DNA from: Nitrospirales bacterium
Lineage (GTDB): Bacteria > Nitrospirota > Nitrospiria > Nitrospirales > UBA8639
Length of the DNA stretch: 64,000 nt
NCBI GenBank assembly: GCA_963555755.3
Contig: OY820905.2
Location: 160,001-224,000 of the forward strand
Direction of reading: 5' to 3'
Part shown: one piece after another, positions 6,012 through 60,266 of the stretch
How positions within the stretch are numbered: the first letter of the stretch is position 1
How the letters are laid out: every line of letters starts with the position of its first letter
Translations under genes and position numbers: made by a program
Notes under the pieces: model-generated
Told to the model about the DNA's origin: nothing
The model's input: the letters and a program-made list of their open reading frames with translations, nothing else
Database searches by the model: none

Positions 6012-6112
6012 CACAGGTGACAACGGCAAACTACTTGAGAGGGTAGGGCGCAAAGCCAAGAGACCTGAGTGTGGATGATAGCCATCCAAGGGTTCGTCTG
6101 GTTACCGAACTG
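6012..6112 (+). ncRNA. Cyclic di-GMP-I (GEMM) riboswitch
   Basis: GGCAAAC-stem-GAGA tetraloop-GGGCGCAAAGCC...GGTTACCGAA matches the class I aptamer core; 5' of a sigma28 gene. Confidence 0.88.
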
Positions 6113-14568: not shown

Positions 14569-16541
14569 GTAGAGTAGAGCACTGGTGCTCATCCTGGAGC
14601 TGCTCTCGAACGTTTCGGCGCACGCGCCTACTCCGGGCCAGAGCAGTCAGAAATAACCAGCGCTCCCTCATCAAACCGTGCATGCGGTTTTCTCGCACAC
14701 GGCTTTCCGATGTTCTTCAGGCCAAGGCATGCGCCGAGCGCCAGCCCGGTCCCACAGGAACCTTGTACAGCCCGTAACGCCCGTAAAGATCAGCATGCGG
14801 GAAGCGGCCTAGGCCGCTTCGTCGATCCTTCACCTTATGGCGTTTCATCAAGTGAGTTCGCAGCCGGGCTTCCGCATGGTTTCTGACCTTGTTCATCGCC
14901 AGACTTGAGTTACGATAGTGGAAATAGTTCGCCCACCCTTTCAGGCTGCGATTGACCGTTCCCACGATAGCACTCAAGGGAATGGCAGTCAGTTCCCGTT
15001 GTGTTAGTGCCGTCAGCCTCGCCTTGATTTTCTTCAGCGATGGCTCCGACGGACGAACATTCGGGTACGGTTTCCCAGAACGTCCCCCTCGACTCAGCTG
15101 AATCGTAAAACCCAGGAAGTCGAAGCTCGCTTGGGTGGCGTCCACGATAGTCGTCTTGGTCTCGTTGAGCGTGAGGCCCAATCGTGCCAGTACGGCTCGC
15201 ACCACCTTCAGCGGTTCCACGACATCTTTTCGGCACAGCACGACAAAGTCGTCTGCGTAGCGCACGAGGTGCGCTTGCAGCTTGTCTTTGAGGTGCCGCC
15301 GTTGCCATAGCCGATCCAACTGGTGTAGGTAGCAGTTGGCCAATAGCGGTGAGAGCACCCCGCCTTGCGGCGTGCCTTTGCTGTTGGCATTCCCGCCACC
15401 CACACCCCGCTTCACGCCGTTGTCGTCTTCACCAATGACCGGGGCTTTGAGCCACAGCTTGATGAGGTGCAAGATGCCACCGTCAACAATGCGCTCAGCG
15501 ACCATGGCCAGCAGCTTGGCATGCGGGATACTGTCGAAGTAGTTCGACAGGTCGGCGTCTATGACGTGGGTGTAGCCTGCCCAGAGCGTATGGGCAATGT
15601 CGTTCACCGCATCATGGGCCGATCGCTTGGGCCGGAATCCGTACGAATTCGCACAGAAGTCGGCTTCAAAGATCGGCTCGATGATGAGCTTGACTGCCAT
15701 TTGCGCCACTCGGTCTCGGATCGTCGGGATCCCTAGCGGACGCAGACTGCCGTCCGCTTTGCGTATCATGACGCGCCGCACCGGTTGGGCTCGGTAGGTC
15801 TTGGCTTTCAGATCACGGGCCAATTCCCGCAGAAACGTGTCTACCCCGATTCCACTCTCTATGGCCTTGAAGCTGATCCCATCACTACCGGGGCTGCCTC
15901 GATTGGCTCGGACAAGCCGCCAGGCATGATTGAGGATATCCTCCTGGCTGATCTTGTCGTAGAGTGCGTAAAAGCGATAGGCCGGTTCTTGCTTGGCCTT
16001 GGCATACAGCTTCCTCTGCAGCGTCCTGATCGTCTCCGGGGTGGTTAGCGCCATGGCAATCCCCTGATCCTCCGCTCTTCGGTTGCATGAACAAAGCAGG
16101 GTTCCTTCCCTCGACCGGGGTTGTGTTGTCCCTCGGCCTCAAGCGGTACTATGAACCCCTCCGACTCCCGTTCCGGGCCGCTGTGATTTCGTGGCCTTAT
16201 ACACATTGGTCGGTGTCCTCCCCACCCCCAAAACGGGTCTCCAGCACTGGGCTATACGTCTTCCAGAACATGCCGTCCTTGCTACCCCGGGAGTCGATGG
16301 GTGTCACTTCCGTTATTCCAGCACCCTTCCAGCGGCCTTCCCCTTCTGACCACAGGGTCGGCGTCTCCACTTTGTTTACGAGGCTACTCATAGGTTCACT
16401 TGCGTTACGGCCTGCTCTTTTGCTGTGTGGAAACTTACGACCCCGCGTTACCACGACGCCGCTTCCTCATGCTACCAAGGTGTACGGACAATTCCTTGGA
16501 CGGGACTTTAACCCGCTAGACATACTGCTGTTACTGCGAAC
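14569..16541 (-). mobile_element. Group II intron (1973 nt)
   Basis: 5' end GTTCG, domain V AAGCCGTGTGCGAGAAAACCGCATGCACGGTTT (~14673-14705), 3' end CTACTCTAC; removal restores an exact 20-bp repeat of the neighbouring sequence; EBS1 GGUCAG at 16346-16351. Confidence 0.92.
14717..16054 (-). CDS. ltrA: Group II intron reverse transcriptase/maturase, no En domain
   Basis: RPLGIPTIRDR, GTPQGGVLSPLLAN, RYADDF, thumb/X region GWANYF; 445 aa. Confidence 0.95.
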   Translation of the reverse strand: MALTTPETIRTLQRKLYAKAKQEPAYRFYALYDKISQEDILNHAWRLVRANRGSPGSDGISFKAIESGIGVDTFLRELARDLKAKTYRAQPVRRVMIRKADGSLRPLGIPTIRDRVAQMAVKLIIEPIFEADFCANSYGFRPKRSAHDAVNDIAHTLWAGYTHVIDADLSNYFDSIPHAKLLAMVAERIVDGGILHLIKLWLKAPVIGEDDNGVKRGVGGGNANSKGTPQGGVLSPLLANCYLHQLDRLWQRRHLKDKLQAHLVRYADDFVVLCRKDVVEPLKVVRAVLARLGLTLNETKTTIVDATQASFDFLGFTIQLSRGGRSGKPYPNVRPSEPSLKKIKARLTALTQRELTAIPLSAIVGTVNRSLKGWANYFHYRNSSLAMNKVRNHAEARLRTHLMKRHKVKDRRSGLGRFPHADLYGRYGLYKVPVGPGWRSAHALA

Positions 16542-32129: not shown

Positions 32130-32205
32130 TGGAGCTGGCGAGAGGAATCGAACCTCCAACCTGTGGTTTACAAAACCACTGCTCTGCCGATTGAGCTACG
32201 CCAGC
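32130..32205 (-). tRNA. tRNA-Thr(TGT)
   Basis: 76-nt cloverleaf: acceptor GCTGGCG/CGCCAGC, anticodon loop TTTGTAA, GGTTCGATTCC, encoded CCA. Confidence 0.97.
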
Positions 32206-47455: not shown

Positions 47456-49183
47456 TTAGAAAAGAAAATAACGCTGGGCCATCGGCAAAATGGCCATGGG
47501 CTCACAGGTCAAATGTTGGCCGTCAGCCTTGACGACATAGGTTTCAGGATCTACTTCCATGTGGGGAAGTGCATCATTTAGTTTTAAATCACGTTTGCCA
47601 ATGTTTCGACAATTTTGAACGGCCACCACACGTTTTTGTAAACCCAAACTGGTGTGGATCTTCCGCTCGATCCCTGCTTGGGACAGAAAGGTTACGCTGG
47701 TGGTGAACGGGGCCCGTCCAAACGCGCCAAACATCGCGCGACTCAAAACCGGTTGAGGTGTAGGAATAGAGGCATTGGGATCGCCCATGGCCGCTTCAAC
47801 GATAAAGCCTCCCTTCATGATGAGGTCAGGCTTTACTCCAAAAAAAGCTGGGTTCCACAACACGAGGTCGGCTAATTTTCCGGCTTCCACTGATCCTACT
47901 TCATGCGCAATGCCATGGGTGATCGCCGGATTAATCGTGTATTTGGCAACGTATCGCTTTGCACGGAAATTATCATTGCTGTCTGGTGATAGCTGGATGC
48001 CTGATGGATTCAGATGCCCCCGTTGGACTTTCATCTTATGGGCGGTTTGCCAGGTTCGGGTAATCACTTCGCCAATTCGTCCCATGGCTTGCGAGTCTGA
48101 AGACATGATGCTGATCGCGCCCATGTCGTGAAGAATGTCCTCGGCGGCAATGGTTTCCCCACGAATGCGTGATTCGGCAAACGCAATGTCTTCCGGTACA
48201 CGCGGGCTTAAATGGTGACAGACCATCAACATATCCAGATGTTCGTCGATGGTATTGACGGTAAACGGCATGCTTGGGTTGGTTGAGGACGGCAAGACAT
48301 TCGACTCCCCACACACGCGAATGATATCCGGGGCATGTCCCCCTCCCGCACCCTCCGTGTGAAAGGTGTGAATGGTTCGTCCGCCAAACGCGCGAATCGT
48401 GTCCTCCACAAATCCTGCCTCATTTAAGGTGTCGGTATGAATGGCGACTTGCACATCATATTGATCAGCAACATCCAAGCAGGTTGAGATGGCTGCTGGT
48501 GTGGTGCCCCAATCTTCATGCAACTTCAGGCCAATCGCACCGGCTTCAACTTGTTCGACCAATGCTTCCGGAAGAGACGCATTGCCTTTTCCCATAAACC
48601 CAAGGTTGATAGGGAATCCATCAGCTGCTTCTAACATCCGGCCAATATTCCAAGCGCCTGGTGTACAAGTCGTGGCATTTGTTCCGGTAGCCGGGCCCGT
48701 TCCACCACCCAGCAAGGTGGTCATGCCTGAGGACAAGGCTTCGGGAACCAATTGCGGACAAATGAAATGCACGTGACTTTCCACACCGCCTGCCGTCACA
48801 ATTTTTCCTTCCCCGGCGATGACTTCAGTTCCGGGCCCGATCTCCATCCGTGGTGTGACACCATCCATCAAGTCCGGGTTCCCGGATTTCCCGATCCCCA
48901 CAATTCGCCCATCTCGAATGCCAATATCCGCTTTGACGATGCCCCAATAGTCGAGAATCACGGCATTCGTCACGACCACATCCAAGGAACCCTTGGCGCG
49001 TGTGGCGGTGGGGGATTGTCCCATCCCATCCCGAATCACCTTGCCTCCGCCGAACTTGGCCTCTTCACCTGGCGTAGTAAAATCTTGTTCGACTTCCACG
49101 ATGAGCTCGGTGTCCGCGAGGCGAATACGATCTCCAGTCGTCGGGCCATACAAGTCCACGTATTGACGGCGAGACAATTTCAT
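47456..49183 (-). CDS. ureC: Urease subunit alpha
   Basis: [35 protein letters not shown]. Confidence 0.98.
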
Positions 49184-56303: not shown

Positions 56304-57527
56304 CTACAATTGCAACTGAAGCGCGAGCTTGATAGCACTGACATCCGCACCCGTGGTCGTGGGTAAATATGATCGGCCTTTGGTCGCAATGTCGCCATAT
56401 TGATAGAACAGGGAAACCTTCGCGTTATGTCCGTCTATGATATAGTTCAGCCCGACTTCGGTTTCGTCCCGGCTGGGGCTGTTGTCTGGGATGTTTTCCG
56501 TGAAACGGACGTAGGGTTGGAATCGTCCGATTCCAACTTCCTGTGGAAACAGAAACAACCCCGTCGCGGTCCACGCATCACCGTCGAAGATGCAGAAACA
56601 TGCTGCTCCAGCAGCCAGGGCTGTAGCATTGAGGTCGGTTTCAAAGACCTTATACTCGCCCTCTAATGTGAGGACGCCATTATTTGAGAAAACCCGTTCA
56701 TAGAGGGCATCAGCACTGAAACCAGTGAAATCGGAAGGATTTGCAGCGGTGCCCGCTCCACCGGATTGATGCTGGATGGCGAAGGCCACAGTCAAGATAT
56801 CGCCTCCGTTGCCGTAATAAGTGCTGCTCGTGTAATAGGCGGGGTTTTGTTCGACATTTAAAAAGTTAAAGGTAAAGCGTCCGGCCCACAGAGGGCTGTC
56901 TCCTGTATTTCCAAATCCATCCAATCCATCAAAGACGCCCACGACATAGGTCAAACGTTTATCCTCTAGAAATGCGCCCCAGATATTGATCCCATCATCG
57001 CGGCCAAATCGCCCGGCTGCAGCTCCGATCCCGGCCGTAGGACTGCCAAGCCCTGCCCCAGGATTACCGAAGTCCTGTGGATAAAATGGGGTCTTATTAA
57101 ATTCATAGGTGTTTTGATAATAGGGACCATCGAGTTCTGCCCGGTCCGAAGGGGCTAATAACCGACCTGCCCATACATTGAAATATTGATTGAACTCAAA
57201 TTTGCCAATGGCATCGAGGACGATCATCGTTCCGCTAGAATTGGTGCCAAAGCAATTCGTACAATCCGTGTTAAATTCCATTTTGATGTATTTGTGAAGC
57301 TGGCCATTCACATACAACCGCATATTGTCCATTGCAAAGTTGGTGCTCCAATCATTGGCATTAGGCGCAGCATCTTCGACAGTGGCATAACTGGCACGAA
57401 CGCCCATGCCAATACTGATCCACTTGGTCTTGTCAATTTGAATCTTCCCTCCGGCGTAAACCGGGGTTGCAAAAAAGGTCATGCCAATTAAAAAAACACT
57501 GAATAGGGGACACGTAATTTTTTTCAT
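56304..57527 (-). CDS. Outer-membrane porin (probable urea/amide uptake)
   Basis: Signal peptide, amphipathic beta strands, C-terminal LQLQL; AGGAGG 9 nt before ATG 57527; first gene of the urt operon. Confidence 0.8.
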
Positions 57528-57585
57528 GAAAAACATCCTCCTGGTCGGAGCCTTCACTCCGGGGTTGCTTCTTGAATGAATAGAT

Positions 57586-57794
57586 CCCAAGGAGGCATGA
57601 GTGGCAGACGAGGCCAGAGGAAGGTCTGCACGGCGAAATTGGGTGGCCTTCACTAACCGGCCAAATGTAACGAATCACTTCTTAAATTGGTCGGAATCTT
57701 CATTCCGATGTTTCTACGAATGTGTTGGCAATGACCCCAAAGAGGCGAGAGCGGCAGACGAGGCGTAACGCGAGGTCTACGTGGCGAGGTTGGG
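57586..57794 (-). ncRNA. Two copies of an unrecognised ~58-nt structured leader motif
   Basis: 57586-57643 and 57736-57794: CCCAA-..CGCC..-GYAGAC-loop..GCCTC-GTCTGC-..GCCTC.-TTGGG. Confidence 0.55.
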
Positions 57795-57817: not shown

Positions 57818-57961
57818 TTATCGCAAAAGTGTGTCTTGTACTTTTTCTTCCTTTTCCTTTTTCTCCTCCATCTCTTGCAGCCAAGTCTCCCAAGCCGAAA
57901 TGATACCTTTCATAAGCCGAATGACTTGGCGATGGAAAGTCTTGGTTGGTTCATCCATCAT
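57818..57961 (-). CDS. 47-aa leader-region small protein
   Basis: AAGGA RBS; MMDEPTKTFHRQVIRLMKGIISAWETWLQEMEEKKEKEEKVQDTLLR. Confidence 0.6.
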   Translation of the reverse strand: MMDEPTKTFHRQVIRLMKGIISAWETWLQEMEEKKEKEEKVQDTLLR

Positions 57962-58214
57962 GAGTTTCCTTCTACAACAAAAACCATGGTGTTAAAGAGT
58001 TGGATTGCTGTAAATTTTCATAGCGTTAAGGTAAAAAAAATCCTTTTGATTCCACTATTTGAACCAAAAGGACATCATTGTCCGGACCTGATTTTCGGAA
58101 CCCTGGAAAACTTCCTCGTCTCCCCTCCGAAATACTACAATGCCATTTTTCCAATCACCTGTGCGTCAGTCCTGGGACTAATCGACCCAGAAGATCTTCC
58201 ACAAGGTGCTGAGC

Positions 58215-58309
58215 AAAAAAAACGCCCTCTTGGTTGAAGCTACAAACCAAAAGGACGTCACTGTCCTTGCTCATCTTTTTCTGGGCACATAAAGAGAACA
58301 CCCTCGTTC
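58215..58309 (-). promoter_or_regulatory. ANTAR-type dual-hairpin attenuator
   Basis: GAAC-GAGGGU-GUUC and GGAC-AGUGAC-GUCC hexaloop hairpins; the second overlaps a terminator (58223-58257) followed by U8. Confidence 0.7.
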
Positions 58310-58311
58310 CC

Positions 58312-60215
58312 CAGGGCTATTTCATATTAAAGTGTAACTTTATAGATAATAAGGAATAATCGATTTAGGCTGGCTTTTTCTTTTCGTTTACGGCATACTC
58401 TTTTGCATGCCAGACGAATCGCCAAGCGGACAGCCGGACATTGATCTGAGGCAAGTCGTGGTTCGCCCAATTGTCCGAGACGAAAAGGACGCCTTCAAGA
58501 CCCTTCTCGACAGACACCACTACCTCGGTCATGCCCCGCTGATTGGCCAATCGATACAATATCTCGCCTGTGTGCAGGATCGCTGGCTGGCCTTGCTGGT
58601 GTTTGCGGCGGCGGCCCTCAAATCGAGACCGCGAGACCACTGGATCGGCTGGCCCCCCTGTTTTCAATGGCAACGACTCCATTTACTGGCCAACAACACC
58701 TGGTTTCTCATGCTGCCGGGCTGTTCGCAAAAGAACCTCGCCTCGAAAGTCCTGTCGCTCTGCGCGAAACGGATCTCGGCCGATTGGCAACTGTACCACG
58801 GCTACCCCTTGCTCCTCTTAGAGACCTTCGTCGATCCTGCCCGCTTCACCGGGACCTGCTATCGGGCCGCCGGGTGGCACGAGCTCGGTCTGACACGAGG
58901 GTTTCGCAAGTCGAACACGTGTTATGTTCAGCATGAGAGACCGAAGCGCATCCTAGTCGTGCGGCTGCATCCCCAAGCCCGAGAGATCCTTGCACGCCCG
59001 ATGCTTGATCAGCCCTATCAGAAAGGAGAAGCGCCTCAGATGAGATTGAATACAAAACAGACGGACTCCCTCTTTACGTATGTGGTGCAGCTGACCGATC
59101 CCCGCCATTTGCAAGGGCAACGGCACACCCGACGCGCCCTCACGGCGATCATGTTCTGTGCCACCTTGTGCGGCGCGCGCGGCTATGAAGCGATCTCGGA
59201 CTGGGCCCAGCAGTTATCGCAGCCGATGCGCAAGCGGCTAGGCTGTACTCAGCGAGGGGGGCGCTACCTCGTCCCGAGCCGCAGCACTCTTTACCGCTTT
59301 ATCACGGCCGTCGACCCCTGTGAAGTCGATACCCTGCTCGGCCGGTGGCTGGACACCTTCGGCGGGGAGGATCAGGGCATTGCCATTGATGGGAAGACCA
59401 TGCGGGGGACGTCGAAGGTCCCAAGCGAACAGACCCACGTCCTCAGCGCCGTCACCCATCAAGCCGGGCGCCACCTCACCCAAAAAAAGTTCACTCCAAG
59501 ACCAATGAGATCCCCTGCGTGCGGCCCCTGTTAGATGCGCTCGAGATCGCAGGGAAGGTGATCACGGCGGATGCGCTCCTCACCCAGAAAGAGATTGCCG
59601 AGTACCTGGTGCACGAACGCGGCGCCGACTTCGTCTTCACCGTCAAGGGAAACCAGCCCACCTTGAAGCACGACATTGAGGCCTTAGCGTTGCGAGCACG
59701 CCGGTGCGATTATGCCACCACCGAGAAAGGCCATGGGCAGATCACGACCCGCAGGATCTGGTGCGATGACTCCCTGAATGCCTATGTCAACTTTCCTCAT
59801 GTCCAGCAAGTCTTCTGCATTGAGAGGGAAGTGACGCATCTCAAGCAGGGCCTCACGACCGTCGAAGCGGTCTGCGGTGTCACGAGTCAGTCCAAAGACA
59901 AGGCGGGGCCGAAGACCATCCTCTCGCAAAACCGAAAGCATTGGAGTGTGGAGAATAAGCAGCATTATGTGTTGGACGTCACCTTTGATGAAGACAGGAG
60001 TCAGATACGAAGTCTCAATGGCCCAATGGTCATGACCTGTCTGAGACGCTATGCCATCAGTCTCTTACGCCTGAAAGGCTACACCAATATCGCGCAGGCG
60101 TGTAGACTGCTCTGGGGCAAGCCCCATTTAGCCATCCGCATGGCCCTGCCCTGAAAAAGAGCGCACAAAAAACCTCATGGAATCCCTTGCTTATAAAAAG
60201 AATGAAATGGCCCTG
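58312..60215 (+). mobile_element. ISAs1-family insertion sequence (1904 bp)
   Basis: TIR CAGGGC(T/C)ATTTCAT; 9-bp TSD CTCGTTCCC at 58303-58311 and 60216-60224. Confidence 0.93.
58407..60154 (+). CDS. DUF4338-fused ISAs1 transposase, two frames joined at a -1 slip site
   Basis: ORF 58407-59534 (HHYLG, ETFVD, DPR..G.RH, AIDGKT) plus second frame (KTNEIP, TADALLTQ, VKGNQ, HWSVEN); A7G at 59482-59489. Confidence 0.88.
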
Positions 60216-60237: not shown

Positions 60238-60266
60238 CTTATATCGAATTACATTCTAGGTGTCAA
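60238..60266 (-). promoter_or_regulatory. Sigma70 promoter facing the urea operon leader
   Basis: TTGACA-N17-TATAAG on the minus strand. Confidence 0.75.

Follow-up and report, generated by a model that had tools for sequence, protein, structure and literature searches.

We found that the leader of the urea transport and urease gene cluster in the window (the whole 64,000-nt stretch of Nitrospirales DNA that was analysed) carries two copies of a structured RNA motif between a 47-aa open reading frame (ORF) and the first gene of the cluster. This arrangement is likely to be a peptide-triggered translational activator that resembles the Com system of phage Mu, is built from a new protein and a new RNA, and was taken over from a phage. 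Somewhat less firmly, we favour a wider reading in which a helical peptide and an RNA with twin CUC/CUC loops form a widespread phage device that switches on translation of capsid and tube proteins, and in which the Nitrospirales use it as a regulon for envelope proteins, in the present case placed behind ANTAR control.

The predicted target gene (56304..57527, minus strand, as are the leader features below) encodes a 407-aa putative outer-membrane protein with a signal-peptide-like N-terminus and is the first gene of the urea transport/urease cluster; the protein, called a porin in an earlier note on this DNA, matched no Pfam family. Downstream of this gene lie a periplasmic binding protein (PF13433), ABC transporter genes and urease genes, and the urt and ure gene names used for the window are our reading of the translations. 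The Shine-Dalgarno (SD) sequence AGGAGG (57537..57542) is located 9 nt before the ATG at 57527 and has a predicted pairing probability of 0.98 in the free RNA. The 47-aa ORF (57818..57961; 46 aa from its second ATG) encodes a conserved helix of about 30 aa with a charged tail, which we propose to be an RNA-binding activator. One run, guessed to be RNA, yielded a 163-nt contig over this ORF and a second run yielded three short related pieces, and neither run demonstrates transcription.

Both units described in the earlier note were found on the minus strand, 150-151 nt apart. Unit A, the upstream copy (57736..57794), consists of an outer helix (P1), a CUC/CUC loop, a 2-bp GC helix, a second helix (P2), another CUC/CUC loop and a capping hairpin; unit B, the downstream copy (57586..57643), has the same fold, and its 3' block GCCUCCU (57596-57590) is complementary to the Shine-Dalgarno sequence of the target gene. 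The outer stem CCCAA/UUGGG pairs 57794-57790 with 57740-57736 in unit A and 57643-57639 with 57590-57586 in unit B, the inner stem GYAGAC/GUCUGC with its C-G versus U-G variation is present in both, and the pyrimidine-rich segments that had been noticed recur in both as YUCGC/GCCUC blocks. The repeat itself extends beyond the 58-59 nt first assigned to it: the two copies can be aligned over about 110 nt, at 70% (E 1.7e-5 in a blastn search of the whole genome), and this length includes a third hairpin, CGGAR-loop-YUCCG, which lies in the spacer after unit A (57692..57707) and again after unit B (57546..57561). The second of these spacer hairpins puts the anti-SD block beside the SD in the predicted OFF fold, and its orthologue in the congener G006, in which both units recur, keeps the stem and has a different loop. 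Unit A scored 49.9 bits with the covariance model described below, yet unit A is a training sequence of that model. Its spacer is followed by no Shine-Dalgarno sequence that it could control, and the unit may be an additional site for binding or a remnant of the duplication. From 57433 to 57678 on the minus strand, a frame of 81 codons stays open across unit B and into the target gene; G006 has an open frame in the same register, and the frame is possibly a by-product of RNA conservation.

Dispersed repeats of the MITE/REP type were ruled out, as the earlier note had held for the window, by the copy number: no further copies were found in the 4.6-Mb genome, where the next nhmmer match had an E-value of 4, and the covariance model run over the genome returned two matches, the two units themselves (150 of 1,143 candidates scored). 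Likewise, the statement that the units fit no recognised riboswitch consensus agreed with the Rfam search, which placed no family over the unit coordinates at its gathering score or at E<=10. Across the phage and ORF loci, no Rfam family reached its gathering score in 20 loci and none lay over the motif in 8 loci at E<=1. Elsewhere in the window, Rfam matched a c-di-GMP-I riboswitch (6015-6109), group II intron domains (14569-16509), a tRNA (32133-32205) and 5_ureB_sRNA (48738-49036), the last of these antisense within the urease alpha-subunit ORF.

Since each unit alone folds only modestly (z-scores of -2.0 and -0.7), folding energy gives no support to the structure, and the support is comparative. 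In the common anatomy, P1 is followed by a CUC/CUC internal loop and then by two G-C pairs; next come P2, which has a bulge on its 3' side, another CUC/CUC loop and the capping hairpin. Some phage copies are branched or have a single loop. The conserved unpaired positions are the C-U/A-C triplets of the internal loops, in which C is kept at both outer positions. A covariance model was seeded with 29 rows, and because these rows were picked with a pairing filter, pairing counts within the seed lean in favour of the fold. The model matched 68 of 89 ORF loci at E<=0.05, 21 of the 68 being training loci. In the model-fitted alignment 90% of 947 cells were paired and two-sided changes occurred in 14 of 14 pairs; none of 500 shuffles reached this level, and slid controls gave 31-41%. 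When helices were anchored by sequence only, with no pairing filter, P1 was paired in 79% of cases compared to 51% after permutation (77 of 133 loci anchored), and P2 in 79% compared to 48% (33 loci). Judged from these alignments, each unit is a covarying RNA fold.

The strand was less clearly marked by the pairs. Wobble counts do not settle it, with 28 G-U against 31 A-C over all pairs, 25 against 12 for the inner pairs, and 17 against 18 in the sequence-anchored unfiltered set, all of it weak strand evidence; the strand assignment rests mostly on the position of the motif at the ribosome-binding site (RBS). This weakness is what favours a DNA-level element, in which the small protein would be a transcription factor that binds repeated CCTCG boxes, or in which single-stranded DNA would form a hairpin. 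We give this explanation a very small probability, since the variable stems covary, the spacing of the blocks varies widely, one of the pairs that close the loops is U-G in 9 of the 59 rows that have no more than one mismatch, and the element both adjoins the RBS and is complementary to it.

The ORF next to the motif belongs to a family whose members share a single helix of about 30 residues. A profile search (E<=0.001) yielded 144 representatives at 50% identity, one of which, of 1,116 aa, is a chance match. The predicted structure of the peptide is one helix (pLDDT 95). Six residues (T5, R14, G18, A22, E24 and W26) are near-invariant, being kept in at least 90% of 88 sequences, and the family has no conserved cysteines. 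Searches with the small ORF against Pfam, NCBIfam, PHROG and PDB gave sub-threshold matches only, and in the ESM Atlas the top score was 0.84, to unnamed clusters and under its recognition level. Six proteins (P0024, P0028, P0061, P0075, P0079 and P0080) align as natural tandem fusions of the helix, and one such fusion is predicted as a helical hairpin, for which Foldseek returned no match at E<=0.001, only generic helical hairpins. Such a predicted hairpin fits a dimer that would sit on a two-fold symmetric loop. Neither tblastn with two family members (none at E<=10, a weak test at 34-35 aa) nor blastn with the L283 locus found a match in 50,697 phage records. No description of the small-ORF family or of the RNA motif was found in the literature, searched mostly outside subscription papers, and we conclude that both are new.

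Viral, metagenome and genome collections were scanned and yielded 187 distinct ORF loci; clustering at 80%, with removal of two broken ORFs and of loci that had less than 100 nt downstream, left 133. The block pattern was present within 110 nt after the ORF stop in 82 of the 133. In the controls, 5 of 131 loci had it upstream, 10 of 132 had it further downstream and 3 of 133 had it on the reverse strand, and shuffles gave a mean of 14.9 (maximum 24). The motif usually starts within about 50 nt of the ORF stop. The other 51 loci are without the block pattern in the first 110 nt, and some of them carry it further on. The gene after the ORF was called for 127 loci and scanned for 113 of them (9 Nitrospirales loci and 5 near-duplicate or miscalled ones were left out), with two starts corrected by hand and a threshold of 1e-12. 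These 113 next genes comprised 17 major head genes, 34 major tail genes, 23 genes of phrog_290, 5 terminase subunits, 8 others and 26 with no match at that threshold. The phrog_290 family is labelled minor tail, and all three members tested matched Pfam Phage_tube_2; major capsid or major tail/tube genes thus make up 74 of the 113.

The association is not uniform among phage loci. Several ORFs stand before capsid, terminase or anti-repressor genes with no motif, and of five whole contigs with the ORF, three had no model match, two of these being 96-100% complete. The ORF at L266, L277, L285, L149 and L227 immediately precedes a major head gene of phrog_1005, and no motif was recognised there; these loci may use another site or another mode. 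Model matches before terminase large-subunit genes were seen at L147, L222 and L240, and one near a late transcriptional activator gene at L236, while L239 has the ORF without the motif before an anti-repressor gene. A joint absence of ORF and motif, which speaks for the link between the two, was seen in the cultured Pseudomonas phages MR13, Aurca01 and PSA-2T: they have the tail terminator/tube pair in common with L269, and they showed no ORF match anywhere and no motif at this pair, where MR13 and Aurca01 have a plain hairpin and an SD in place of the motif. Model matches in two cultured phages were weak (17 and 15.6 bits).

The position of the motif at the RBS suggests how it would act. Its last block (GCCUCC with the 3' strand of P1) is complementary to the Shine-Dalgarno sequence or start region of the next gene, and since the conserved fold and the SD-blocking helix both use this block and strand, the two are mutually exclusive. 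Of 71 loci chosen for a duplex test, 5 were dropped for want of a 3' block. In the remaining 66, in some of which the block was mis-picked, the duplex of the 3' block with its own RBS averaged -11.4 kcal/mol compared to -8.5 +/- 0.28 after permutation. The own duplex was better than GC-matched partners in 50 of the 66 loci, the own RBS was in the top tenth in 18, and it was the single best partner in 6. Blocking the 3' block raised predicted SD accessibility from 0.30 to 0.46, whereas blocking other windows, which were farther from the SD than the 3' block, left it at 0.30. For the window, the minimum-energy fold is the OFF state (-35.9 kcal/mol), with GCCUCCU paired to AGGAGG, and the conserved fold, the ON state (-33.0 kcal/mol), is 2.9 kcal/mol costlier. 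With P1 forced, the SD in the window is still predicted to be 60% paired through other helices; in G006 the predicted SD pairing is 0.98 when free and 0.30 with P1 forced. Because the conserved fold excludes the SD helix, whatever binds that fold should activate translation.

An alternative that we regard as unlikely keeps the protein-RNA pair and gives it another output, as a repressor, antiterminator or mRNA stabiliser that acts without freeing the SD. In its favour, the spacer at L058, L066, L069, L244 and other loci is a GC-rich hairpin followed by U's and looks like a terminator, and neither unit A nor some of the motif copies upstream of the ORF in genus g11 is directly followed by an annotated gene. 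However, U-tracts are missing behind the spacer hairpin at many loci, that of the window among them, and the fold that covaries is the one that excludes the SD helix, so that stabilising it frees the SD. SD release remains our preferred output.

Motif and ORF are not always adjacent. At L269-L280 the motif lies directly before the tail-tube gene while the ORF is 0.2-0.3 kb upstream, and larger distances, with the motif at the tail-tube RBS, were found at L114 (0.8 kb), L139 (1.4 kb), G137 (5.4 kb) and G134 (7.7 kb). In G127, two extra motif sites occur in 3-kb loci without the ORF, of which the genome has two copies elsewhere. That the motif stays at the RBS of its target 0.2-8 kb from the ORF argues for a partner that diffuses, and from these arrangements the partner is probably the peptide and probably diffusible. 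The earlier note had listed the peptide of the small ORF among candidate ligands, and the co-occurrence of RNA and ORF supports it as the predicted partner. The same loci bear on translational coupling without binding, in which ribosomes ending the small ORF would melt the SD-blocking helix and the peptide would be a by-product or a minor part of the virion. The usual spacing, with the motif starting about 50 nt or less past the ORF stop, is what such coupling would look like. Nonetheless, it is highly improbable in our judgement, given that the motif is found at the target RBS even with the ORF kilobases away, that the peptide residues are conserved also in bacterial chromosomes with no virion genes nearby, and that coupling has no need of the conserved loop sequences.

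Among relatives labelled Nitrospirales or Nitrospiraceae, the RNA follows the ORF. The 407-aa first gene has matches in 15 of 41 related genomes, and in these leaders the units, and likewise the small ORF, are present only in G000 and G006; the covariance model matched none of 11 porin-orthologue loci lacking the ORF (one, L011, cut short upstream). Since the motif is missing wherever such a locus lacks the small ORF, and since it was also absent from the amt and ANTAR-gene regions of this genome, an element specific to urea genes was rejected. In 115 genomes of the family, the small ORF was found in 20 and the RNA model in 20, with 19 in common; these genomes are related, 17-18 of the positives being one genus and three being in the training set of the model, and the co-occurrence counts are therefore not independent tests. 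The exceptions are G104, which has an ORF with an internal stop and a degenerate motif, and G013, where the model match is probably due to chance, as it lies inside a long ORF on the other strand that we take to resemble purH. In a sample of 151 genomes of the phylum, the ORF was found in three, all with an adjacent motif, and the motif in four, the fourth match (G204) being weak, inside an ORF and judged to be chance.

In the family genomes, related blocks occur after, and often before, the small ORF, and the genes that follow the motif in other Nitrospirales encode FecR/TPR, DUF7948 or unassigned proteins. Loci of genus g11 (L020, L022, L031, L036 and L038) have a motif copy 100-250 nt ahead of the small ORF and, behind this copy, an SD-like site and an upstream ORF of 20-52 codons, which at L020, L031, L036 and L038 ends at or just before the start of the small ORF; this layout suggests positive autoregulation of the small ORF. 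A prophage in the Nitrospirales genome G248 has the ORF, the motif and a major tail gene in order, and prophages of this type are a plausible route into Nitrospirales chromosomes. Judged from this distribution, the module in this genome was probably taken over from a phage.

Two further units, missing from the earlier note, lie 240-520 nt further upstream than the RNA motif. Each of these ANTAR-type units (unit 1, 58215..58309; unit 2, 58033..58122; both on the minus strand) has two hairpins with hexaloops whose fourth position is G, and an intrinsic terminator overlaps the second hairpin. In PMC3369931, ANTAR targets are described as two hexaloop hairpins of which the second overlaps a terminator, with A at the first loop position important for NasR; the upstream units share the dual hexaloops, the G at position 4 and the terminator overlap, and they differ in that the first loop begins with G. 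Units A and B, in contrast, have neither a hexaloop pair nor a terminator. A strict twin-hairpin scan was passed by 6 of 17 porin loci, four of them without the RNA motif; it also gave 14 sites, 10 of which are copies of one dispersed repeat and one of which is unrelated; as most sites are dispersed-repeat copies, the pattern alone is not specific. One ANTAR gene (GAF-GAF-ANTAR) is present in the genome, and ANTAR genes occur in 30 of 41 relatives. A twin unit also lies before a porin-ammonium transporter pair, and a single hairpin with a terminator before the NAD synthetase gene beside the ANTAR gene (G000 C1, about 618200 and 1745575; L297 and L296, respectively). Read from sequence, the urea cluster and the ammonium transporter and NAD synthetase-uridylyltransferase genes are a probable ANTAR-type nitrogen regulon. 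A sigma-70-like promoter, a consensus match only (TTGACA, 17 nt, TATAAG; 60238..60266, minus strand), stands directly before ANTAR-type unit 1 in G006. In the window the two are separated by a multicopy insertion sequence (58312..60215; two ORFs with DruA-like and DDE_Tnp_1_assoc domains, a 9-bp target duplication and 50 megablast rows in the genome) that is absent from G006 and may cut or alter transcription of the urea operon in this strain.

These units bear on the nitrogen or urea control that had been proposed for the motif itself. The earlier reading is supported as to a structured cis-regulatory RNA and is not supported as to nitrogen or urea control by the motif. A metabolite riboswitch or nitrogen-responsive element, with tandem units that bind urea, glutamine or a similar compound and free the SD, would account for the tandem layout in a urea-operon leader, kept in G006, and its architecture would resemble the predicted ON/OFF arrangement, which is like that of a translational riboswitch. 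We consider it very improbable because outside the present leader the motif is not linked to nitrogen genes (none of the 11 other porin loci has it, nor do the amt and ANTAR-gene regions of this genome), its targets are virion genes, its distribution follows the small ORF, and the ANTAR-type units supply a separate nitrogen layer, for which they appear the likelier candidate. The motif showed no consistent association with the pathway genes of any one metabolite.

Among known systems, Com of phage Mu comes closest to the proposed activator. According to PMC6483171, Com, a zinc-finger protein (CCCC) of 62 aa, recognises CC(N)2-3GAG in a hairpin loop and regulates the DNA-modification gene mom. 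Both systems have a small phage protein encoded just upstream and an RNA structure beside the start of the next gene whose start signals become exposed (PMC6483171; predicted here), and the start signals of the next gene are predicted to be sequestered in an alternative structure in our loci as well. Unlike in the Com system, the present protein has one helix with no conserved cysteines and no zinc finger, the proposed site is a set of paired CUC/CUC internal loops with no CC(N)2-3GAG hairpin loop, and the targets are capsid, tail-tube and, in Nitrospirales, putative envelope genes. The CcaF1 (DUF1127)/CcsR locus of Rhodobacter has a similar order, with the gene of a small RNA-binding protein followed by repeated C/U-rich structured RNAs that bear an anti-SD-like sequence (PMC8034643). 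No DUF1127 match was obtained for the small ORF (Pfam, E<=1). The CcsR RNAs are reportedly processed, trans-acting sRNAs with the CCUCCUCCC motif in terminal loops, whereas our motif has its blocks as internal loops and remains in cis, at a single RBS. The absent DUF1127 and the internal-loop blocks rule out a DUF1127/CcsR identity. Five candidate structured RNAs have been placed upstream of a major capsid family in phages (PMC10690425), and these and Rfam GP20-a/b are, like our motif, cis structured RNAs upstream of phage structural genes. Unlike for the present motif, the available part of PMC10690425 makes no mention of a small-protein partner or of tail genes, and four short motif strings were absent from six of its supplementary files; an unnamed model of the same RNA may nonetheless stand elsewhere in its supplements.

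Taken together, we propose that the free RNA would be OFF by default, with the SD paired, and that the small protein, probably as a dimer or higher oligomer, would bind the two-fold symmetric CUC/CUC loops. The bound protein would hold P1 closed and so free the SD, at a predicted cost of about 3 kcal/mol in the window, and it could diffuse to sites as far as 8 kb away. Phages would thereby selectively make more of the high-copy capsid and tail-tube proteins from the long late transcript. In the Nitrospirales genome, the phage module would have been placed between the ANTAR-controlled terminators and the first urea gene; with this placement, transcription would depend on nitrogen status, and the peptide would exert a further, translational control over the putative porin.

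The surplus of capsid and tube proteins made from one late transcript of tailed phages is usually ascribed to fixed RBS strength. If the proposed mechanism is true, the stoichiometry of virion proteins is set by an active, protein-triggered switch, the small protein is among the smallest RNA-binding regulators known and comes with a new RNA motif, and the pair would offer a compact orthogonal ON-switch for synthetic biology. For the Nitrospirales, the analysis flags an ANTAR-type nitrogen regulon of urea, ammonium transporter and NAD synthetase-uridylyltransferase genes, and the module would be a concrete case of a phage regulatory device adopted by the chromosomes of nitrifiers.
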